Source of the DNA: an uncultured Clostridium sp.
GTDB lineage: Bacteria > Bacillota > Clostridia > TANB77 > CAG-508
Direction: 5' to 3'
Assembly: GCA_964608075.1 (NCBI GenBank)
Contig: CAZSMG010000002.1
Span: forward strand, 5,154-69,153
DNA length: 64,000 nucleotides
Position 1 is the first letter of the stretch. Each line of letters starts with the position of its first letter. The notes below the pieces were generated by a model. It was not told the DNA's origin, did no database searches, and saw only the letters and a program-made list of their open reading frames with translations. This document shows, piece after piece, positions 2,395-44,481 of the stretch. A program made the translations under genes and the position numbers.

Positions 2395-4842
2395 ATGGAA
2401 CCACAAGATGAAAGAATTATACAAAGAGACATTGAAATGGAAATGAGAACTTCTTACATAGATTATGCAATGAGTGTTATTGTTTCTAGAGCATTGCCAG
2501 ATGTAAGAGATGGACTAAAACCAGTTCATAGAAGAATTTTATATGCAATGCATGAAGATGGAATAACAGCAGATAAACCATATAGAAAATGTGCTAATAC
2601 TGTAGGATCAGTTTTAGGAAGATATCATCCTCATGGAGATAGTTCAGTATATGACGCTATGGTTAGAATGGCACAAGATTTTTCAATGAGATATATGCTA
2701 ATTGATGGTCATGGAAATTTTGGATCAATAGATGGTGATGGCGCTGCTGCTATGAGGTATACAGAAGCTAGAATGTCTAAGATTTCTGAATATATGCTTA
2801 CAGATATTGAGAAGAACACAGTTGATTTTATGCCAAACTATGACGATAGATTACAAGAGCCAACTGTTTTACCAGCAAAAATACCAGCATTATTAGTAAA
2901 TGGATCATCAGGTATTGCTGTAGGTATGGCAACTAATATTCCACCACATAATTTAACAGAAGTTATAAATGGAATTATAAAAATAATTGATGAAGATGAA
3001 GTAACTGATGAAGACTTAATGAGTGTTATAAAGGGACCAGATTTTCCTACAGAAGGAATAATATTAGGTGTTGAAGGAATAAAACAAGCTTATACTACGG
3101 GAAAAGGTAAAATAACTGTTAGAGCCGAAGCTGAAATTGAAGAAATGAGCGGGAACAAACAAAGAATTATTGTTTCTTCTTTACCATATCAAGTTAATAA
3201 AGCAAAATTAATAGAAAATATAGCAAGACTTGTTAGGGAAAAAAGAATTGAAGGAATTTCTGAAGTACGAGATGAATCAGACAGAATTGATAGAGTTAGA
3301 ATAGTTATCGAATTAAAAAGAGATACAAATGCTCAAGTCGTTTTAAATCAATTATACAAAAATACTCAAATGCAAGATACTTTTGGAATTATAATGTTAG
3401 CTTTAGTTAAAGGTGAACCTAAAATATTAACATTAAGACAATGTTTAGATTGTTATATAGACCACAGAAAAGATGTTATATTACGTAGAACAAAATTTGA
3501 ATTAGATAAAGCTTTAGCAAGAGCTCATATTTTAGAAGGATTAAAAATAGCTTTAGATAATATTGATGAAGTAATTAGCATTATTAGATCATCATATGAT
3601 GATCCTAAAGAAAAATTAATTGAAAGATTTAAATTAACAGATATACAAGCACAGGCCATATTAGATATGAGACTAAAAACTTTATCTGGATTGCAAAGAG
3701 AAAAAATTGAAGAAGAATACAATGAATTAATGAAATTAATTGCTTATTTAAAAGAAGTTTTAAGTAGTGAAACATTAGTATTTAATATTATAAAAGAAGA
3801 ACTTATTCAAATAAGAGATAAATTCGGAGACGAAAGAAAGACAAAAATTGTTGCTGCCGAAGGGGAAATTAATATTGAAGACTTAATAGAAGATGAACAA
3901 AATGTAATAACTTTAACCCACTTTGGATATATTAAAAGAATGCCAATAGATACATATAGAAGCCAAAAAAGAGGTGGAAAAGGTATTACAGGAATAGCAA
4001 CAAGAGAAGAAGATTTTGTAAAACAAATATTTACAGCTTCTACACATGATACTGTATTATTTTTTACAAATAAAGGAAAATTATATAGATTAAGAGGATA
4101 TGAGATACCAGAAGCTGGTAGAACAGCTAAAGGAACAGCAATTGTAAATTTATTAAGCCTAGATCCTGGTGAAAAAGTTTCAGCAGTTATACCAATACAG
4201 AATTTTGCTGAAGGAAAATATCTTCTTATGGCTACAAAAAATGGATTAATTAAGAAAACATCACTTGTTGAATATAATTCTGCAAGAAAGACTGGATTAC
4301 AAGGAATTACATTAAAAGATGATGATGAACTTATTTCTGTAAGATTAACAGATGGACAAGATAATGTTGTATTAGTTACAAATAATGGAATGAGTATAAC
4401 ATTTGATGAAAAAGATGTAAGACCTATGGGAAGAGTTTCACAAGGAGTTATAGGAATAAGATTAGATGACGATGATGCAGTAATAGGGATGGAATCAATA
4501 ATAGCTGGTGGAAGAGCAACATTACTTGCAATAACAGAAAATGGATTTGGAAAGAGAACTGAATTAGATGAATATAGAGTGCAAAATAGAGGTGGAAAAG
4601 GAGTAGTAACATATAAAATAACTCCAAAGACAGGGAAACTAGTAGGTATAAGGATAGCAACTGAAGAAGAAGATGTAATGCTTATTACAGATACAGGAAT
4701 TATTATTAGAATTAGTGTTAAAGATGTAAGTGTCTTAGGTAGATCAACTCAAGGAGTTACATTAATGAGAACAAATGATGGAGGAAAAGTAGTAAGTATA
4801 GAAACATTAAGACCAGATATTGAAGATTCAATAGATGAATAA
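2395..4842 (+). CDS. gyrA: DNA gyrase subunit A
   Basis: 815 aa. It has the N-terminal [28 protein letters not shown] motif, the catalytic Tyr in the AAMRYTEAR region, and C-terminal beta-pinwheel repeats. Confidence 0.97.
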
Positions 4843-4848
4843 AAAAAT

Positions 4849-4885
4849 AAAGATTTCATTTGAAATCTTTATTTTTTGTTTTTAA
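4849..4885. terminator. Bidirectional rho-independent terminator between gyrA and the convergent DnaC-like gene
   Basis: Hairpin aaagatttca-tttg-aaatcttt flanked by T-runs. Confidence 0.5.
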
Positions 4886-5873
4886 ATCTAATATCGTCAC
4901 CAAAAAAATAATAAATATCATAAAAGCCTGCAATTCTTGAACCTATTCTTTCCTCATAATTAGAAAATATATTATTCATACTTAAATTAGTTGAAATTAT
5001 TGTTTTTGTAACTTTAGAATTTAAATTTAATAGTCTTGTATTTAAGATCGTAAATAATTCACTTAATTTCATACTATTTAAACATTCGGTTCCTAAATCA
5101 TCAATAATTAATAAATCAACTTCTAATACATCTTTATAAAAGTCATCTAAAGTATTCTTTGATTTATTCAATTTATTATCAATAATGGTTTCTAATAATA
5201 CTGGCGCTGTTTGATAAAGAACAGTTTTTCCTTTTTTTAGTAACTCATTTGCTATACAATTAGACATAAATGTTTTTCCAAGACCAGTATTTCCTGTAAA
5301 TAATAAATTATTTTGTTCTGGATTATCAAAATTACTTACAAATTTTATACATTTATCTTTTATATTAATCATATTAGTTCTAGGAGATATATTTAATTTA
5401 TATTTTGATATATCAACTTCATTTGAAAATAGATTTTCATTAAAATTATCAAAATTTTCTTTATTTAGATTTGATATATTTGATTTATTATAAGAAATAT
5501 TGAGTAATTTTTGTTTTAAACAACTACAAAGTTCAGTTCTATTATTATTTAATACATACCCAGTATCTTTGCAAATAGAGCATTCATAAATTGGTTTTAG
5601 ATAATTAGAAGATAAAGTGTTTTCTTTTAATATTTTATCTCGTTCCACTTTTAACAATTCTACTTTTTTATATAAATCATTTAAAGAAGAAGCATTATTT
5701 ACAAGTAAATTTTTTGCAGTATTAATTGCAAAATTATTTAATTCATCTTCGATTTCTTTAAGTCTAGGTATAGAAGAATATAATGAGATTTTTCTATCTT
5801 CTAAATCTAGCTCTGCTTTTATTCTTTTTTGATCATATTCTTTTAATAAATTATTTAAAATTTCATTAGACAT
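4869..5873 (-). CDS. DnaC/DnaI/IstB-like AAA+ helicase-loader ATPase with an N-terminal Cys4 zinc-finger-like segment
   Basis: Walker A GNTGLGKT, Walker B LLIIDDLG, and CSICKDTGYV...CSC upstream. It overlaps the upstream DnaD-like gene by 8 nt. Confidence 0.8.
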   Translation of the reverse strand: MSNEILNNLLKEYDQKRIKAELDLEDRKISLYSSIPRLKEIEDELNNFAINTAKNLLVNNASSLNDLYKKVELLKVERDKILKENTLSSNYLKPIYECSICKDTGYVLNNNRTELCSCLKQKLLNISYNKSNISNLNKENFDNFNENLFSNEVDISKYKLNISPRTNMINIKDKCIKFVSNFDNPEQNNLLFTGNTGLGKTFMSNCIANELLKKGKTVLYQTAPVLLETIIDNKLNKSKNTLDDFYKDVLEVDLLIIDDLGTECLNSMKLSELFTILNTRLLNLNSKVTKTIISTNLSMNNIFSNYEERIGSRIAGFYDIYYFFGDDIRFKNKK

Positions 5874-6852
5874 TGGAGTCTCCTTCTAGTTTTTTATTTG
5901 CATATAAAAAGTCTAAATTATCATATTGCCTTTGTTCAAAAGATTCTTTTGATACTTTTTTTGTTAAAGATTTAATATCTTTTGATTGTTTCTTTCTTTC
6001 TTCTAAAAACTTAAGTATATCATTTGGATTTTTTAATTTTCTATCATGCCAATCAGTTATAACATTGTTTAAATATTCAAAGTTTGCATTTGATTTATAA
6101 GTAGTTCTCTTTAGTGCGATTTCAATAACATCAAATTCATATCCAAAATCAAATACCCATTTTTCTATATAAGCTTCTTCGTATTGAGTTAGACCATCAT
6201 ATTTACCAAGTTTTTTACAGATTATTTTTTTAATTTTATTTATCTTTTCTTGTTTTTGGTAATATAAATCTAAATCATTCCATGTTTGAATTTTATTTAA
6301 TCCCCAAGCTTCTGCAACTGTTTGAACGTAATTTTTATGAAGAGCAGATCTATTAAAACAATATTCAAATAATGCAATCATTACTTGCTCATCAAAGTTA
6401 TATTTTCTAAACCATAAATCAATATCATTATACCAAGATGGTCCCATAATTCCTTGGAAATATTTATTATTTATATGTTCAATTGCTTTTGCTCTTGATT
6501 GATTTTTTGAATTCTCTTTAATTTTTTCTGCAGACATAGTTAAATTAGGTTTATATAATTTATGAAGAATTTCTTCTTGTAAATCAACGATAACATAGCC
6601 AGTTGTTTTCTTAATTATAAAATTGTTTTCTTCTAAAAATTTTAACCCATCATTAATCGTTTTTAATGGAAGCGAAAGCTTTTTAGATAAATCATTTAAT
6701 TTAACATCTTTGTTATATTTTGATAAAAATACAATATATAAATATATTTTTATATAATCACCTGGCAATTGTGATAAGTGTTCAGCAAAAAAAACATCAG
6801 GTAAAGACGTATTTGAAAATAATAATGGTTTTTCTGATTGTTCTAACTTCAT
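5866..6852 (-). CDS. DnaD/DnaB_2-domain replication initiation / membrane-attachment-like protein
   Basis: The C-terminal DnaD-type domain (YEEAYIEKWVFDFGY...VITDWHDRKL) is recognisable. The start was moved to the second ATG (MKLEQ), which has an AGGAGA RBS 6 nt upstream. The track ORF begins at 6891. Confidence 0.7.
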   Translation of the reverse strand: MKLEQSEKPLLFSNTSLPDVFFAEHLSQLPGDYIKIYLYIVFLSKYNKDVKLNDLSKKLSLPLKTINDGLKFLEENNFIIKKTTGYVIVDLQEEILHKLYKPNLTMSAEKIKENSKNQSRAKAIEHINNKYFQGIMGPSWYNDIDLWFRKYNFDEQVMIALFEYCFNRSALHKNYVQTVAEAWGLNKIQTWNDLDLYYQKQEKINKIKKIICKKLGKYDGLTQYEEAYIEKWVFDFGYEFDVIEIALKRTTYKSNANFEYLNNVITDWHDRKLKNPNDILKFLEERKKQSKDIKSLTKKVSKESFEQRQYDNLDFLYANKKLEGDSNV

Positions 6853-6998
6853 AAACATTCTCCTAAAACAAAATAAGTAAGATAAAATCAAACTTTGTAA
6901 AATTATATCATGTTATATATATAAAATCAAATTAAAAATAGATAAGTTTTAAAGAGAAAAGAATATAAAAACAATAGGAAAATTAATGTTTTTAAAAT

Positions 6999-7283
6999 TT
7001 AATCTTTTCTAAAAAAATAAATTTTCTGTTTAAAAATATATTTAAAAACGTATATAAAAAAATATGTTATATTTTCACCATTAAAGCCTAATATACTAAA
7101 TAGTAATAATGGAAGAGAAAGAGATATAAAAATAAAAATTTTTAAACTTAAATCCTTAAAAAATATATGTAATATTGTCAATATCAGCCCTGACCATATA
7201 ACATTTAATATAGCTGTTGAATAGTCAATAAAGCCTAATATTTTACTACTGAAATTGTAATTTTGTGGAAATATAAATTTCAA
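6999..7283 (-). CDS. Small polytopic membrane protein (94 aa)
   Basis: Hydrophobic segments throughout. Co-directional with the coupling-protein cluster. Confidence 0.45.
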   Translation of the reverse strand: MKFIFPQNYNFSSKILGFIDYSTAILNVIWSGLILTILHIFFKDLSLKIFIFISLSLPLLLFSILGFNGENITYFFIYVFKYIFKQKIYFFRKD

Positions 7284-7300
7284 GATATCCTCCTTTTAAA

Positions 7301-8179
7301 TTATTTTTTAAAGAAGCTATTCACATTTAGCGAAAAATCTGTGGATGGACCTCCTATAAAATCTCTTACAAAAGAATTTACTTTTATTAATGCATAAATT
7401 GCGCCTAAAAATATAAATTTTAATACAAGCTTAGCGGATGAAAAATCCATTGAAAATAGAATTAATAAAATAATAGATACTAATATTTGAATAAAAAATA
7501 ATGAAAAAAAGTTTCTAAGCCAAGCTTTAAAAAACCATGAAGTATTTTCTAAGCATAATGAAAGAAAAGCAAAGGGCGTTAGTAATATAAATATTTTAAC
7601 CATTATGTATCTAAGTGCATAAGAAAAAACTAAATTAAGTAAAGAAATTGTAAGAGCTCCTTTAATTAAGCCATCAATAGAAAATATATTTATAGTGTTA
7701 GAATTAATTGTTATTGAATTATTTATTTTATTTATTAAATTAGAAAAACATATTTCTGTATTAAAAAGATTTTCACCTAACTCTCTAATTGCTAAAGAAA
7801 TATTAGAGAGTAAAAATATTGAGCGTTCAACAATAATTCCTGATAAATTCATGCATAAACCAAAAATTATTAATTTAAAAATAAATTGTTTGGGAGATTC
7901 TATAGGAGAATATGTTAAACTAGAAAATAGAAACTTTGCAGCAAAATATAAGATAAAACCAACTAATAGAGAATTTGCAATTAATAATAAACCATTTGAA
8001 GAAGAACTTCCAAATATTTTATCAAAATATGGATCATCAAGAATATTAGTATTTATAAAAGTTATATCATCTAAAATTGAATATAAACTATTATCTATTG
8101 ACGAAAATAGATTTTCAAAAATTGTATTTATTGTATTAATTATTGTATCAGTAATATTTGTATTTAACGTTTCTTCCAA
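7301..8179 (-). CDS. Polytopic membrane protein (292 aa), VirB6/TrbL-like topology (tentative)
   Basis: Five or more predicted TM segments. Its position downstream of the coupling protein suggests a conjugation channel component. No diagnostic motif seen. Confidence 0.4.
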   Translation of the reverse strand: MEETLNTNITDTIINTINTIFENLFSSIDNSLYSILDDITFINTNILDDPYFDKIFGSSSSNGLLLIANSLLVGFILYFAAKFLFSSLTYSPIESPKQFIFKLIIFGLCMNLSGIIVERSIFLLSNISLAIRELGENLFNTEICFSNLINKINNSITINSNTINIFSIDGLIKGALTISLLNLVFSYALRYIMVKIFILLTPFAFLSLCLENTSWFFKAWLRNFFSLFFIQILVSIILLILFSMDFSSAKLVLKFIFLGAIYALIKVNSFVRDFIGGPSTDFSLNVNSFFKK

Positions 8180-8190
8180 TAATGCACCAC

Positions 8191-8523
8191 CTATCCAATT
8201 AATGATTCAATTGCAGATAAAATTAAGTCAATTGCTAAAATAAAAGCATATGCAAAAAGAGAATTTTTGACAAGCTTTTTTCCTGTCCTAATTCTTTCTT
8301 CATCTCCAAAACTAAATTTTTGCATAAACATTCCAGTAGCAACTGCCACTGCAGCAGCAGGTGTTGCGATTTTTAGAAGCCAACTTTTAATTTCTTTGAA
8401 AGCTTTTGTTATTGTTTTTACAAGTGCAGGTTCTCTAGCATATGTATAAGTAGATAAAGATAAAAATAATATAATTGAAAATATTAAAATAAAAATAATA
8501 TAAAAAATTTTTTTGTTTTTCAT
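8191..8523 (-). CDS. Secreted/membrane small protein (110 aa), VirB2/TrbC-like topology (tentative)
   Basis: N-terminal signal peptide ending in YA-R, followed by two hydrophobic helices (IATPAAAVAVATG and LFAYAFILAIDLILSAI). Confidence 0.4.
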   Translation of the reverse strand: MKNKKIFYIIFILIFSIILFLSLSTYTYAREPALVKTITKAFKEIKSWLLKIATPAAAVAVATGMFMQKFSFGDEERIRTGKKLVKNSLFAYAFILAIDLILSAIESLIG

Positions 8524-8558
8524 AAGTACTTCCTTTCTTGATTATAATTATAAAATAA

Positions 8559-10266
8559 TTAAGTTTTATTTAAAAAATATGGATACATATTTATTTTTTT
8601 AGGTGGTAATATTTTATTTCCATCAGACAAAAAGCAAATAGAAGAAAATGTTTCTAAATCTTGTGTAAAGAATTTAGTATCATATTTAAAATCTGTTTGT
8701 AAATATGAATTTATACTTTCTGATATATTAGAATTTTTTGAATTTAAAGTATTTGTTATATAACTAAACTTAGTTTCTCTGGCATTTTCCGAAATTGTAT
8801 AAGAAGTTTTTTTCTTTTCTTCTTTACCTAATTGTTTTTGTGCCTCTTCTATTGTGAAGATATCATCTGTTCTAAACCAAATTTTATTTATTAAATTTTG
8901 GCATATAACTTTAACTGATGTTTCATCTTTCAAAGTATTTTTTAATGATGAATAACTTTGTGTACTAATAATATTTATACATTTTGCTTCTCTACTTAAT
9001 GAGAAAAATTCACAATCATTTTTAGTTACATATTCAGAATATTCATCACATATAAAAGCAGATGGTTTAACATTATCAATTGATAAGTTATACATTATTT
9101 CAGATTGAAAATCTAATTTTAAATATGCTGCTACAATTTTTGATAAGTTACGATATTCTGCAATGTTCATTTTTAGTACCACAATTTTTCCTTGACTTAT
9201 AATTTCTGAAAAACCTAATAAATTAATGTCATTTTTTTTAGGACAAAAAGTATTTAATACTTCATAATCAGAAATAAAAGTGTTTGTAATTCTTGTAATT
9301 TCAGATTTTAAAATAGCTAGAGTTCTAGAGTCTAATGAAAAGTATTCTTTTTCAAAAAAATCTAATGAACTATTTAATTCATAAATATCTTTTTGAGATA
9401 ATTTAGAAGAAGTAAATAATTCTCTTAACTTTTCAATTTTTTCTTTATAATAATTAGGATAAGTAATTAGTTTATGAATTTCTAAGAAAGTAACATATCC
9501 ATCGTTATAAAGTCTGCAAAGCTTTATGCATTCTGTAATTATTTGTTCAGCTTTATCTAGCCAATATGATTCAGAGTTATTTTCAGAAAAAAGTGTTAAG
9601 ATTGTTTTTAATCTATTACTTAAAATTGCAGGATTTAGATTTGGTTTATGAAGTGGATTATATTTTATATTTGAATTTAGCTCAATTGTAATTAAGTCAT
9701 TTTGCATATTATATTTTTCTAAATAATTGTAAACTTGATTATAATAATTACCTTTAACATCAAGAATTAACATACTAATTTTTTTATTTGGATTTAAAAA
9801 GTTATATTTTATTAATTGCTCTGTAAGTGGATACATTGCAGAACTTGTCTTCCCAGATCCTATAGTTCCTGTTATTAAAAAATTCTGATATAGACCTAAT
9901 TCAGAAACATAGATGTCTTTATTCTCATTATCATCATGACCAATTAATAGGCTTAAACCATCTTCATTATTTAAATTTTGCTGTTTTTCTTTATGATTTT
10001 TTTTAAAAGAATTTTCTTTTTTAAAAATTTTTGAGTATATAGAGTTCGAAATAATAATGTTTGAAAAAATAAAACATGGAATATATATGATCTTAAGATA
10101 TAACCACAGATCGGGATCTTTTTGACATATATCAAATGGTTTTATACCATATCTAATAATTATTGTATCTGAAATATATAATGGATAAAGGAAATAATAA
10201 AATATAATACTTAGAATACTTAAAAAAATGATGCAAAATATGAAACGTCTTAATAAAAATTTAATA
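8559..10266 (-). CDS. VirD4/TraG-family type IV coupling protein (T4CP); the N-terminal TM domain and Walker A lie in-frame upstream of the annotated ATG with no canonical start codon
   Basis: The track ORF is 8559..9836 (MYPLTEQ...). The same frame continues upstream with no stop as ...FIFCIIFLSILSIIFYYFLYPLYI...IIYIPCFIFSNIIIS...LITGTIGSGKTSSA-MYPL. These are two TM helices plus a GSGKT Walker A. Walker B-like FICDEYSEY and the T4CP motif IISTQSYSSL lie downstream. AGGAGG is at about 10275-10280. The only plausible initiator is ATT at about 10264-10266. A stop is at about 10303-10305. Confidence 0.6.
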
Positions 10267-10539
10267 AAAAAGACCTCCTTATATATTTTTGTTTTTAATT
10301 TTTAATTTTGAACCTTGAAGATTATGAAATATTTTAATATCAAAAAAAGTATAAATTGAATACAAAGTTATAAAAAGATTAATAATAAAAGAAATAAAAA
10401 ATAAATTGATTAAATTTGAAATAAACTCACCACCTTACAATTTTTTCCATAATACAATATTTTTTTTATTTTGTCTATACTTTTTATATAAAATATGGTA
10501 AAATATTTAAATAGAGTTTATTAAGAAAGGAGGAAAACC

Positions 10540-10725
10540 ATGAAGATAACTAAGGATACAAAGATTGGTGAAATTTTAGAAATAGCTCCAGAAAAAGCTG
10601 AAATATTATTAGAAATAGGAATGCATTGTCTAGGATGCCCAGCATCTCAAATGGAAACATTAGAAGAAGCATGTGAGGTACATGGAATAAATGTTGAAGA
10701 AGTTGTAGAAAAACTTAATAACTAA
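10540..10725 (+). CDS. DUF1858-type small redox protein (hybrid-cluster-protein-associated disulfide domain)
   Basis: 61 aa with a CLGCP motif. GGAGG RBS. Confidence 0.6.
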   Translation: MKITKDTKIGEILEIAPEKAEILLEIGMHCLGCPASQMETLEEACEVHGINVEEVVEKLNN

Positions 10726-10753
10726 TAAAAATGATAAATTTTTAACAAAGATA

Positions 10754-10782
10754 TTGACAATTGCGTAAAAATATTGTAATAT
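10754..10782 (+). promoter_or_regulatory. Sigma-A promoter for the tRNA Lys-Glu-Thr operon
   Basis: TTGACA, a 17-nt spacer, then TAATAT. Confidence 0.5.
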
Positions 10783-10814
10783 ATAAAAGTGTTGTGGATT
10801 TTCTGCAATAATTT

Positions 10815-10890
10815 GGGCTATTAGCTCAGGTGGTAGAGCACTTGACTTTTAATCAAGTTGTCCCGCGTTCGAGTCGCGGATAGCTCACCA
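10815..10890 (+). tRNA. tRNA-Lys (anticodon TTT)
   Basis: Cloverleaf read by eye. Acceptor gggctat/atagctc, anticodon loop cTTTTaa, encoded CCA. Confidence 0.85.
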
Positions 10891-10938
10891 AAAGAACTAA
10901 ATAATTGAAACACATTATTTAGTTCTTTAAAATTATAA

Positions 10939-11013
10939 GGCCCGTTGGTCAAGCGGTTAAGACATCGCCCTTTCACGGCGGAGACATGGGTTCGATTCCC
11001 GTACGGGTCACCA
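10939..11013 (+). tRNA. tRNA-Glu (anticodon TTC)
   Basis: Acceptor ggcccgt/acgggtc, anticodon loop cTTTCac, encoded CCA. Confidence 0.85.
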
Positions 11014-11016
11014 ATT

Positions 11017-11093
11017 GCCACTTTAGCTCAGTTGGCCAGAGCACCGCACTTGTAATGCGGGGGTCCTCAGTTCGAATCTGAGAAGTGGCTCCA
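11017..11093 (+). tRNA. tRNA-Thr (anticodon TGT)
   Basis: Acceptor gccactt/aagtggc, anticodon loop cTTGTaa, T-arm ctcag-ttcgaat-ctgag, encoded CCA. Confidence 0.8.
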
Positions 11094-11160
11094 TTAAAGG
11101 TTAGTAGTTTTGAGTATACTCTTAATTATTGACTTTTATTTTTTTATTAAGGAGTATTAT

Positions 11161-11892
11161 ATGGAAAAAGTTATTATAGTAACAGGAGCATCAAGAGGGA
11201 TAGGAAAAGACATAGCAATTACACTTGCAAAAAAAGGATATAAAGTTATTGCAAATTACAATAAATCTGAAAAAGAAGCTATATTATTAAAAGAAGAATT
11301 AGATAAACAAAATATAGATATAGACATATTTAAAGCAGATGTATCTTTAAGAGAAGAAGGACATAAATTAGTAGAATATTCTTTGAAAAGCTATGGAAGA
11401 ATTGATGTTTTAATTAATAATGCAGGAATTGCTGAATATAAAATGTTTCTAGATGAAACAGATGAAGACTGGAATAGAGTAATAAATACTAATTTGTATT
11501 CTGCATTTATGATGTGCCAAGAAGTTATACCTAGTATGATACATAATAAGTCCGGAAATATTATAAATATTTCATCAATTTGGGGTATGGTAGGGTCATC
11601 ACTAGAAGTAATATATTCAGTTTCTAAAGCTGGGATAGATGGATTAACTAAAGGTTTAGCAAAAGAACTTGGACCATCAAATATAAGAGTAAATTCAGTT
11701 GCGCCAGGAGCGATTGATACGGATATGAATAAGGATTTAACTAAAGAGGAATTAATAGAGTTAGAAAACCAGACACCTCTTGGAAGAATTGGAAAGCCCC
11801 AAGATATTACTAAATGTGTTTGTTGGCTAATTGAAGATGATTTTACAACCGGACAAGTAATTTCACCAAATGGTGGATGGGTAATTATATAA
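11161..11892 (+). CDS. Short-chain dehydrogenase/reductase, FabG-like 3-oxoacyl-ACP reductase
   Basis: TGASRGIG NAD(P)-binding motif, NNAG, and the catalytic YSVSK (YxxxK) motif. The start is set at MEKVII, which has an AAGGAG RBS. The track ORF starts at 11110. Confidence 0.85.
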   Translation: MEKVIIVTGASRGIGKDIAITLAKKGYKVIANYNKSEKEAILLKEELDKQNIDIDIFKADVSLREEGHKLVEYSLKSYGRIDVLINNAGIAEYKMFLDETDEDWNRVINTNLYSAFMMCQEVIPSMIHNKSGNIINISSIWGMVGSSLEVIYSVSKAGIDGLTKGLAKELGPSNIRVNSVAPGAIDTDMNKDLTKEELIELENQTPLGRIGKPQDITKCVCWLIEDDFTTGQVISPNGGWVII

Positions 11893-43023: not shown

Positions 43024-43099
43024 CGCGGGGTGGAGCAGTTGGCAGCTCGTCGGGCTCATAACCCGAAGGTCGATAGTTCGAGTCTATCCCCCGCAACCA
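43024..43099 (+). tRNA. Initiator tRNA-fMet (anticodon CAT)
   Basis: C1 is opposite A72 (cgcgggg...ccccgcA). Three consecutive G-C pairs in the anticodon stem (tcggg-ctCATaa-cccga). Encoded CCA. Confidence 0.85.
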
Positions 43100-43293: not shown

Positions 43294-44481
43294 TTATACG
43301 AGCATCTCCTCTAAAACATTACCAGCTTCTTTATTATGAGCTTCAACTGGATGTACATAGAAGTTTAAGGTAGTAGTTATTTGAGCATGCCCTAATCTTG
43401 ATGCTACAACAGCTACATCTACATTTTTAGATATAAGCAAAGTAGCATTTGTGTGTCGCAAACCATGAAAAGTAATTTTTGGTAAGTTGTTCTTTTCAAT
43501 AAAAGAACGAAACCAATCTGTAACTGTATCAGGATGCATTGGATTACCATTCCAAGTAACAAATAGCCTGTTTGAGTCATTCCATAAATCGCCAAATCTT
43601 TCTTTTTCAGCATCATACCAAGTTTTGTACTTATTAAGCATATTTATAACAATATCCGGAATTCCGACTTTTCTTATTGAACTATGTGTTTTTGGATCTT
43701 TTACGAAAATGCCTTTTTCAGATGTGTATTGACTTGCCTTAGTAATATTAACAAAACCTTCTTTAAAATCAATATCTGACCATTCTAAGCCTAATACTTC
43801 GCCTCTACGCATACCAGTAAACAATGTTAATATAACAATAGTTTGAAATTTGATTTCTTCATTTTCTAATGCTTCTAATAATTGTTTACATTGAATATCA
43901 TCGTAGTATTTAATTTGAGGTCTTTGGTGTTTAGGTGGCTTAACTCTGTCAGCTGGATTAAAGGGAAGTATTTGCCAATATACTGCGTTTTGTAGCATTG
44001 CATGTAGTAAACGATGATGCTCTAGTATTGTTTTAGAAGATAGACTCTTCATTACAGTCTTTCCATTATGATTTTTACATCTTTTTAATTGATGATCTTT
44101 TGAAAGATCATCGTAAAAATTCATAATGTGCGGTGGCTTGATATCGCATAACTTATAATGCCCAAAGTATGGAAGAATTCGAGATTCTAGCATTCCTTTA
44201 TATCTTTCATAAGTTTTTGGCGATAATTCCTTTTTGCCATAATTTTTAGCCCATAAATCTGTAAATTCTTTAAATGTCATTGAAGAGTTTTGCAAAACGA
44301 TACCATTTTCAACTTCATAAACAAAGTTCACAAGTTCTTTATCTGCTTCACGCCTACTATTTGCTTTGATGCTCTTAGTATATTTGATTCTGTTACCATA
44401 GCTGTCAAAACCATGTGATACAATTAATCTCCATGAGCGTTTGCCTCTCTTTTCAAGATACCCTGCCATTACTTTTTTCAC
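43294..44481 (-). CDS. int: Tyrosine-type site-specific integrase
   Basis: C-terminal catalytic region GLRHTNATLLI...LGHAQITTTLNFYVH (R, H-x-x-R, Y). N-terminal SAM-like domain. Adjacent to the tRNA. Confidence 0.9.
   Translation of the reverse strand: MKKVMAGYLEKRGKRSWRLIVSHGFDSYGNRIKYTKSIKANSRREADKELVNFVYEVENGIVLQNSSMTFKEFTDLWAKNYGKKELSPKTYERYKGMLESRILPYFGHYKLCDIKPPHIMNFYDDLSKDHQLKRCKNHNGKTVMKSLSSKTILEHHRLLHAMLQNAVYWQILPFNPADRVKPPKHQRPQIKYYDDIQCKQLLEALENEEIKFQTIVILTLFTGMRRGEVLGLEWSDIDFKEGFVNITKASQYTSEKGIFVKDPKTHSSIRKVGIPDIVINMLNKYKTWYDAEKERFGDLWNDSNRLFVTWNGNPMHPDTVTDWFRSFIEKNNLPKITFHGLRHTNATLLISKNVDVAVVASRLGHAQITTTLNFYVHPVEAHNKEAGNVLEEMLV

Follow-up and report, generated by a model that had tools for sequence, protein, structure and literature searches.

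A coupling protein-like ATPase gene with a probable AUU start

In a 64,000-nt stretch of DNA from an uncultured Clostridium sp. (assembly GCA_964608075.1, contig CAZSMG010000002.1, positions 5,154 to 69,153; hereafter the window), we identified a gene for a membrane ATPase of the coupling-protein family that most likely starts at an AUU codon (10265-10263, minus strand) and that, read from there, is intact and encodes 568 amino acids (aa). The best explanation of the locus as a whole, to which we give a probability of roughly 0.8, is that this gene is the second cistron behind a small open reading frame (ORF) that is itself predicted to start at AUU. The coordinates of the features discussed are collected in Table 1.

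The ORF listing of the window opens each ORF at the first ATG, GTG or TTG after a stop, so the 425-aa ORF with an ATG start that it gives at 8559-9836 (minus strand) has no canonical start upstream in its frame. As the initial annotation of this DNA recognized, a further 155 codons ahead of that ATG are open and contain none of the three canonical start codons. A TAA at 10304-10302 closes the frame; the figure of 155 counts back to this stop, and the extension from the ATT to the Met of the 425-aa ORF (Met144) comprises 143 codons. The same annotation described an AGGAGG near 10275 with an ATT 8 nt on, and both are present, the former at 10279-10274 and the latter in frame at the codon given above. 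The AGGAGG belongs to a strong Shine-Dalgarno (SD) sequence, AAGGAGGT, the 8-nt spacer is TCTTTTTT, and the start region reads ..TATATAAGGAGGTCTTTTTTATTAAATTT.. The 568 codons contain neither a frameshift nor a stop. Met144, by comparison, has no SD and is invariant among the 28 homologues across which we judged residue invariance. This Met had been placed one residue after the Walker A motif; it does directly follow the string GTIGSGKTSSA, but it lies three residues after the Walker A octamer itself.

Within the window the use of ATT is specific to this gene. Eighteen GGAGG sites head a long ORF with at most 15 open codons upstream, and 17 of them have a canonical ATG, GTG or TTG 2-14 nt behind; ATT occurs only at the ATPase gene. 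Two independent Logan assemblies of nearly the same strain, made from other sequencing runs (SRR27999959 and SRR27999951), keep the ATT while diverging from the window by about 4 nt over some 680 nt, and the codon in the window is therefore not a read or assembly error. Nothing hints at anything unusual in the initiation apparatus, as the initiator tRNA encoded in the window (Table 1) appears canonical. We also sought infC in the window for comparison of start codons, and it was not among the ORFs scanned.

Start codons among relatives

A protein search (E <= 1e-5) returned 5,674 relatives of the ATPase. Among the best 120 of these (P0001-P0120), lengths range from 534 to 579 aa and mostly from 546 to 571 aa, the exception being this strain's own 425-aa call (P0002); the suggestion that the truncated form might be the conserved one is thus not borne out. 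The called N-termini are inconsistent. Many fall within transmembrane (TM) segment 1 (MLLMCTT.., MCTIVF.., MACFCAW..), others read MKIKVKRFIFC.. or MIIIKRFIF.., and still others begin at a GTG overlapping the SD or at an upstream TTG that has no SD. A K/R-R-F-I-F segment is conserved upstream of the called starts that lie inside TM segment 1. This inconsistency is what gene callers would produce when the true site offers no canonical start, and we read the 120 sequences as one conserved protein of about 560-570 aa. In one of them (P0005), the ATG-encoded Met (MKIKVKRFIFC) aligns exactly with the ATT of the window ((I)KFLLRRFIFC).

To tabulate start codons we used 82 loci: 80 from the genomes of 80 GTDB species, one from a metagenome relative (L003), and the window. 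The 80 species loci come from gut metagenome-assembled genomes (MAGs) classed as 'uncultured Clostridia/Clostridium', with humans, rabbits, goats and mice as hosts. In every locus we fixed the reading frame and the in-frame stop that precedes it, chose the best SD, and took the in-frame codon behind that SD as the predicted start. This codon is ATT in 42 loci, ATA in 31, ATC in 2, CTG in 1 and ATG in 4, with two loci unresolved; ATT, ATA or ATC (ATH, or AUH in the mRNA) thus stands at the orthologous start position in 75 of 82 loci. A canonical codon at least 20 codons upstream of the invariant Pro28, in the stretch that encodes TM segment 1, is absent from 61 of the 82, and a canonical codon with a usable SD is found in only seven. 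The AUH is preceded by an in-frame stop at a distance of 1-2 codons in 19 loci, which makes any other start impossible there. The consensus of the family around the start is an A-rich stretch, GGAGG, a spacer of 6-10 nt (about 7), ATH, and AAA, the last being the second codon in 46 of 80 loci. The metagenome relative, which is 82% identical to the window, has AAGGAGG, 7 nt, and then ATA at the position of the window's ATT.

A neighbour-joining tree of the proteins requires at least 14 changes of start codon and has ATA/ATT at its root. The four loci with ATG form one clade (L018/L021/L022/L025). The comparison lends strong support to the rare AUU start that the initial annotation had offered as one of two alternatives. 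That annotation overlooked that such a start is no peculiarity of this strain: on the evidence of these loci, AUH is an ancestral, maintained and family-wide start in a lineage of low-GC gut Clostridia.

The sequence between the AUH and Met144 has the properties of a coding region. Comparing the window with its two relatives L003 and L004, dN/dS is 0.22-0.25 for codons 2-143 (at dS of about 0.95) and 0.10 for codons 145-568, and we conclude from these values that the 143 N-terminal codons are under purifying selection. As a control from the same loci, we examined the starts of the pilin-like gene that follows the ATPase gene, and these are ATG in 60, TTG in 15, GTG in 1 and ATA in 3 of 79 loci. 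Canonical starts are hence found in 76 of 79 loci for the pilin-like gene, in sharp contrast with the ATPase gene (Fisher p = 8e-37). The three remaining loci (L010, L017 and L060) have a pilin-like gene that apparently starts at ATA, 7 nt behind AGGAGG; AUH starts appear occasionally to reach the third gene of the operon.

Three relatives carry lesions in the ATPase gene. Two species-level MAGs from Nepal and Hadza samples (L015, positions ~1440-1800, and L039, positions ~1455-1800) share a 1-nt insertion, a C at a conserved LLIG motif, in the context ..ATT C GGT TAT AAT..; the zero frame stops three codons on, and the +1 frame is well conserved. This may be either a programmed +1 frameshift at AUU-CGG, CGG presumably being a rare codon there, or a split gene or pseudogene that the two share. 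In L056 (positions ~318-640, on a contig of 2.1 kb), a TCA has become a TAA nonsense codon in the poorly conserved linker between TM segment 2 and the nucleotide-binding domain (NBD), where the relative L070 retains TCA; this lesion may mark a pseudogene or an assembly error.

A small ORF upstream of the ATPase gene

By translating the 300 nt upstream of the ATPase gene in all frames, we found a small ORF that is not annotated in the window and that was overlooked in the initial annotation, as was the fact that it ends within the SD of the ATPase gene. The predicted product, (I/fM)SNLINLFFISFIINLFITLYSIYTFFDIKIFHNLQGSKLKIKNKNI, consists of one hydrophobic helix with a basic tail. Besides the window, 78 of the 79 other loci scored contain the small ORF. 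Over a core of 40 codons, entropy is 0.58, 0.26 and 0.92 at codon positions 1, 2 and 3, and pN/pS is 0.33, so that the small ORF carries a coding signature. Searches of Pfam, NCBIfam and PHROGs gave no significant family for it. In a collection of 5.8 billion proteins, the small protein occurs in only 50 clusters, compared with more than 5,600 for the ATPase; that it is so rarely called fits a start that is invisible to gene finders.

The predicted start of the small ORF is ATT in 45 loci, ATA in 23, ATC in 1 and ATG in 10 (8 counted by script, and L032 and L042 by eye), and the 10 species with ATG cluster on the tree. ATG is never found at both cistrons of one locus. In nearly all loci, GGTGGTGA or GGNGGTGA lies 4-5 nt ahead of the predicted start; in the window the corresponding extended SD-like motif is AAGGTGGTGA, which has one central mismatch to AAGGAGGTGA, the full complement of the anti-SD. 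The central base of this motif (GG-N-GGTGA) is T or C, and in the motif search it was never labelled A, which would make the SD perfect.

The junction of the two cistrons is tight. In 72 of 79 loci the small ORF stops at a distance of -20 to +2 nt from the ATPase start, with overlaps of the form AUAA in 14 and AUUAA in 7. In the window, the final A of the TAA at 10281-10279 is also the first base of the AGGAGG of the ATPase gene, which leaves a gap of 13 nt to the ATT. From this arrangement, the small ORF and the ATPase gene are probably tandem cistrons that are translationally coupled. They resemble coupled overlapping gene pairs of the ATGA/TAATG type (PMC10666635, PMC2268962) in having a stop near or overlapping the downstream start and an SD within the end of the upstream coding sequence, and differ from these in that the overlap is AUAA or AUUAA, so that re-initiation would take place on a near-cognate codon. 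The relative frame of the two varies over all three phases, and in 22 loci they are in the same frame and separated by a stop only; this variation among loci rules out a conserved fusion of the two, or a frameshift that links them, both of which we considered.

Upstream of the small ORF, the top of a promoter consensus scan is TAGACA-17 nt-TATTAT (Table 1). The scan as a whole yielded 58 matches against 55 expected in this AT-rich region, that is, no more than chance, and it is conservation across species that points to a promoter: of the 75 loci aligned, most have GTATAGACAAA and a -10-like hexamer at this position. Within 9800-11200, an Rfam scan (E <= 1) found only three tRNAs and no leader or riboswitch. 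A hairpin that sequesters the SD was likewise considered and is unsupported, as the RNA of the putative leader and junction (213 nt) is less structured than its shuffles (z = +1.23).

Family, domains and fold of the ATPase

By sequence and by predicted fold, the ATPase belongs to the coupling-protein (VirD4/TrwB) branch of the FtsK/HerA ATPases. It scores 28.7 bits against Pfam TrwB_AAD_bind (PF10412; cut-off 20.5) and 28.6 bits against TraG-D_C (PF12696; cut-off 22), while its score against NCBIfam SXT_TraD (TIGR03743), 37 bits, is far below the cut-off of 366 and places it outside that subfamily. The stretch upstream of Met144 encodes the two TM helices that the initial annotation had noted, as hydrophobic segments at residues 1-32 and 53-77, and the Walker A motif. 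Residues G133, T134, I135, G136, G138, K139 and T140 of Walker A and F404, I405, C406, D407 and E408 of a Walker B-like motif are invariant, as are P28, W54, G109 and Y119 in the N-terminal region.

An AlphaFold2 model built with the 28 homologues is of moderate quality (predicted local distance difference test score, pLDDT, 72) and places an N-terminal helical hairpin before an α/β NBD with a helical insertion. With this moderate-quality model, a Foldseek search of the PDB gave as best matches Cagβ of H. pylori (8dol; E = 1e-9, TM-score 0.50-0.55), TrwB of R388 (1e9s; E = 1e-8, TMt 0.63), and DotL of the L. pneumophila type IV coupling complex (6sz9), with DndH-C, VirB4 and HerA ranking after these. 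No solved coupling protein was matched when the family profile was searched against the sequences of the PDB, which gave only DptH/DndH (E = 1e-3); the fold search was therefore needed to see TrwB, Cagβ and DotL.

The ATPase thus shares with VirD4, TrwB, TraD, Cagβ and DotL a two-helix N-terminal anchor, an NBD of the FtsK/HerA type with Walker A and B motifs, matches to curated Pfam families, and a fold. It differs from them in being chromosomal and syntenic in at least 67 species and in having at most 27% identity to annotated plasmid homologues; the relatives found by tblastn against plasmids are mostly on plasmids typed as non-mobilizable, and no informative annotated gene neighbours them. 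Its locus also adjoins genes for a DnaB_2-domain protein, a DnaI-like protein (an IstB/DnaA-type ATPase) and gyrA, unlike the loci of type IV coupling proteins. The designation 'type IV coupling protein' in the initial annotation is accordingly upheld at the level of family and fold but not by the company of the gene, as the ORFs scanned up to about 10 kb away on both sides showed neither a VirB4 nor a relaxase domain. We use 'coupling protein' only as the name of a family, which does not imply a role in conjugation.

A proposed mechanism

We propose that the AUU at 10265-10263 would be selected by the strong SD 8 nt upstream, with AAA as the second codon. The first cistron would produce a 47-codon membrane peptide from an AUU behind its extended SD-like motif, and would terminate inside or next to the ribosome-binding site of the ATPase gene. 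The formylmethionyl initiator tRNA (fMet-tRNA) would initiate on the near-cognate AUH at low efficiency, so that de novo initiation on the small ORF would be weak, and ribosomes finishing the small ORF would be handed to the adjacent AUH of the ATPase gene by termination-reinitiation, aided by the SD of the latter. The outcome would be a scarce membrane ATPase whose amounts are stoichiometrically linked to those of a small membrane peptide, with both cistrons sensitive to start-codon proofreading that depends on initiation factor 3 (IF3). We infer initiation at AUH, coupling, attenuation and sensitivity to IF3 from features that can be read in the sequences, namely the absence of canonical starts, a conserved SD followed by AUH, an N-terminus that is under purifying selection, and the small ORF with its geometry.

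A more far-reaching version, which we put forward as speculative and think rather improbable, is that the locus constitutes a tandem 'AUN-start' module. In such a module, a peptide and an ATPase would both be made from near-cognate starts that have a free third base and are specified by nothing more than AU behind a strong or extended SD, and an overlap of stop and start (AUAA, AUUAA) would couple the two physically. The discrimination by IF3 would be multiplied, and the whole could gate, at the level of translation, an orphan, vertically inherited membrane machine resembling a type IV secretion system (T4SS), in response to initiation fidelity, growth state or stress.

Alternative explanations

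The other alternative offered in the initial annotation was a gene in decay that expresses only a soluble fragment (of 425 aa); we include here the case in which the start was lost and nothing is made. The window does lack a canonical start before Met144, the copy of the gene in the database is called as 425 aa (P0002), and three relatives have lesions (L015, L039 and L056), yet the 568 codons are free of frameshifts and stops, the N-terminal extension evolves at a dN/dS of 0.22-0.25, and the canonical start is equally absent in 61 of 82 loci that keep an ATH at the SD. Without the invariant Walker A, moreover, the fragment could not function as an ATPase, and it would have to begin at an internal residue that is invariant and has no SD; we consider decay very unlikely. 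A sequencing or assembly error that hides a true ATG is scarcely conceivable: ATT is one base from ATG, but the assemblies of other runs carry ATT, and about 75 other species have ATT, ATA or ATC at the same place. Translation might also start elsewhere, at a GTG or TTG inside TM segment 1 as the database N-termini that begin there would have it, or the ATPase might be made as a fusion with the small ORF by frameshifting or readthrough, for which the 22 loci with a single frame broken by a stop could speak. Both seem improbable, since neither GTG nor TTG occurs in frame ahead of Met144 in the window, the K/R-R-F-I-F segment ahead of the called starts is conserved, and the relative frame of the two ORFs varies over three phases.

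A weightier alternative accepts that the AUH start is real and regards it as non-adaptive. AT-biased mutation, in a genome like that of the window with a GC content of about 25%, would erode ATG to ATH and let the third base drift, and a strong SD, an AAA second codon and ribosomes arriving from the upstream ORF would make that base irrelevant. This is a real possibility, although we lean against it. The third base of the AUN start (A31 C2 G4 T42) cannot be told apart from the composition that these genes show at four-fold sites (A 0.42, C 0.087, G 0.041, T 0.45; chi-square p = 0.18, with kinship ignored). This suggests that AUG brings no advantage at the ATPase start, and the weak codon may be tolerated instead of selected; the repeated changes on the tree, and the tolerance of ATG in one clade per cistron, agree with this. 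Other genes of the same genomes, however, keep canonical starts under the same mutation bias, and selection must therefore ask something different of the ATPase gene. The lack of any locus with ATG at both cistrons, and the neglect of kinship in the third-base test, also tell against drift.

Several further points weigh against our preferred reading, that of an intact ATPase gene with an AUU start behind an AUU-start small ORF. Its support comes from the comparison of sequences, and all loci are from uncultured MAGs or metagenomes. The 80 species loci are the closest quarter of 320 species with a relative, and the state we tabulated is confined to these. The assignment of starts depends on a rule of our own (best SD and spacing), which leaves L013 ambiguous between a TTG at 10 nt and an ATT at 4 nt, L016 between an ATG at 3 nt and an ATT at 9 nt, and L010 and L058 with no resolved start for the ATPase gene. 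Coupling is deduced from geometry alone, and the ATPase gene, with a strong SD of its own, may initiate independently.

Table 1. Positions of the features of the ATPase locus, its neighbours and the initiator tRNA gene in the window.
Feature	Position	Strand	Remarks
Promoter-like TAGACA-17 nt-TATTAT	10449..10477	-	About 13 nt upstream of the small-ORF SD; top of consensus scan
Extended SD-like motif AAGGTGGTGA of the small ORF	10427..10436	-	One central mismatch to AAGGAGGTGA
Unannotated small ORF	10279..10422	-	47 codons and TAA; predicted ATT start 10422-10420, stop TAA 10281-10279
SD AAGGAGGT of the coupling protein-like gene	10273..10280	-	Read from sequence; AGGAGG at 10279-10274
Proposed AUU start of the coupling protein-like gene	10263..10265	-	8 nt after AGGAGG; AAA next
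Coupling protein-like coding sequence, full length (predicted)	8559..10265	-	568 codons and TAA; Pfam, AlphaFold2 model, structural matches
TM segment 1 (residues 1-32)	10170..10265	-	Kyte-Doolittle window peak 2.67; modelled helix 2-31
TM segment 2 (residues 53-77)	10035..10109	-	Hydrophobic segment; modelled helix 51-98
Walker A GTIGSGKT (residues 133-140)	9846..9869	-	Upstream of the annotated ATG
Internal ATG (Met144)	9834..9836	-	Taken as start by gene callers; invariant residue of motif SSAMYP, not a start
Walker B-like AFICDE (residues 403-408)	9042..9059	-	Five residues invariant in 28 homologues
Pilin-like gene, 110 aa	8191..8523	-	ATG start; PF18895 T4SS_pilin 25.3 bits, just below cut-off 26.6; follows in 79 loci
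Polytopic membrane protein, 292 aa	7301..8179	-	TTG start; faint TrbL/VirB6 match, E 0.24; follows in 78 loci
94-aa ORF	6999..7283	-	TTG start; follows in 69 loci
Initiator tRNA	43024-43099	+	C1·A72 mismatch, three anticodon-stem G:C pairs, anticodon CAU; read from sequence

Genomic context

On the minus strand, the order is promoter, small ORF, ATPase gene, pilin-like gene, gene for the 292-aa membrane protein, 94-aa ORF, and genes for the DnaB_2-domain protein and the DnaI-like AAA+ protein. Positions 4869-10422 form one string of genes on this strand, in which the module is joined to the DnaB_2-domain and DnaI-like genes, and gyrA adjoins it on the plus strand (2395-4842). The 292-aa protein has a weak match to an uncharacterised PHROG (phrog_3750, E 0.0023), and Pfam, NCBIfam and PHROGs gave no significant family for the 94-aa ORF. 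The DnaB_2-domain and DnaI-like genes are possibly helicase-loader genes.

Upstream, on the opposite strand, are a DUF1858 gene and tRNA-Lys, tRNA-Glu and tRNA-Thr, and DUF1858 is divergent upstream in all 67 loci with enough sequence. The ORFs scanned within about 10 kb of the ATPase gene gave, apart from those of the module, only DnaB_2, the DnaI-like ATPase, gyrA, DUF1858, tRNAs and housekeeping genes. Gene order shared to this degree (DUF1858 in 67 of 67 loci, and the pilin-like gene, the 292-aa protein and the 94-aa ORF in 79, 78 and 69 loci) indicates that the module is vertically inherited and chromosomal, and it looks domesticated rather than like a mobile element. The host lineage of gut Clostridia appears to be genome-reduced, one complete chromosome measuring 1.55 Mb.

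Two other regions of the window deserve mention. A gene for a phage-type integrase (43294-44481, minus strand) directly follows the gene for the initiator tRNA, and is succeeded by ORFs that belong to no family and by a DUF6076 protein; this is probably an element integrated at the initiator tRNA gene. Positions 1-1550 are about 1.5 kb of non-coding DNA ahead of a gene at 1556 and of gyrA, and fall where the window is richest in AT (GC 15% over 1-2000). A direct repeat of about 70 nt (..AATTTTTAATAAAATTTTTAATAAAAAAATAATGAC..) occurs there at positions ~1-70 and ~824-895.

Relation to known non-AUG starts and significance

Initiation at codons other than AUG is as such already known. Initiator fMet-tRNA can start translation on AUU and AUA at reduced efficiency, and in E. 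coli, infC (AUU, autoregulation by IF3) and pcnB (AUU, translational limitation) are genes in which a near-cognate AUU limits expression and is proofread by IF3. The ATPase locus differs from these in having no evident feedback logic, and in belonging to another lineage and another class of gene.

In S. aureus, cvfC1, ccpN, infC and citZ have conserved AUU or AUA starts with extended SDs, mapped by Ribo-Ret, and reporters of cvfC1, ccpN and citZ yield about 10% (up to 30%) of the output of an AUG reporter (PMC13009471). IF3, which discriminates against non-canonical start codons, has an effect on re-initiation as well (PMC2268962). The ATPase gene most resembles ccpN of S. aureus and B. subtilis (AUA) and cvfC1 (AUU) and infC (AUA) of S. 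aureus, in which a conserved AUU or AUA is properly spaced behind a strong or extended SD (PMC13009471), and as with these, initiation by fMet-tRNA would be expected to be reduced and sensitive to conditions. Unlike them, it encodes a predicted membrane ATPase of the coupling-protein family, it would be one of two consecutive AUH cistrons, of which the stop of the first abuts or overlaps the second, and the third base of its start is free to be A, U or C, and in rare cases G, among about 80 species.

A search of the open-access literature turned up no coupling-protein gene with a reported non-canonical start, and the searchable literature holds no report of tandem AUH cistrons, of a free third base, or of the hidden small protein. 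What is new here is thus the AUH start across a family of coupling protein-like ATPases, its tandem arrangement with a second AUH cistron whose stop abuts the start, the free third base, and the small protein, all as predicted from the aligned loci.

These starts have consequences for annotation. Gene finders that are limited to ATG, GTG and TTG mis-call this family, producing 425-aa stubs, starts within TM segment 1 and starts that overlap the SD, and these truncated or missing proteins are passed on to surveys of gut metagenomes for secretion systems. Conserved AUU or AUA starts are known from few bacterial genes, and this locus supplies about 80 natural variants of two adjacent AUH starts that differ in their overlaps. 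It is a comparative data set for asking how Firmicutes make up for a near-cognate start by means of an SD, a second codon and termination-reinitiation. As to its role in the organism, the chromosomal and syntenic ATPase locus, which has no nearby VirB4 or relaxase among the ORFs scanned, suggests a domesticated or minimal membrane translocation module, and low expression of this module appears to be built in.

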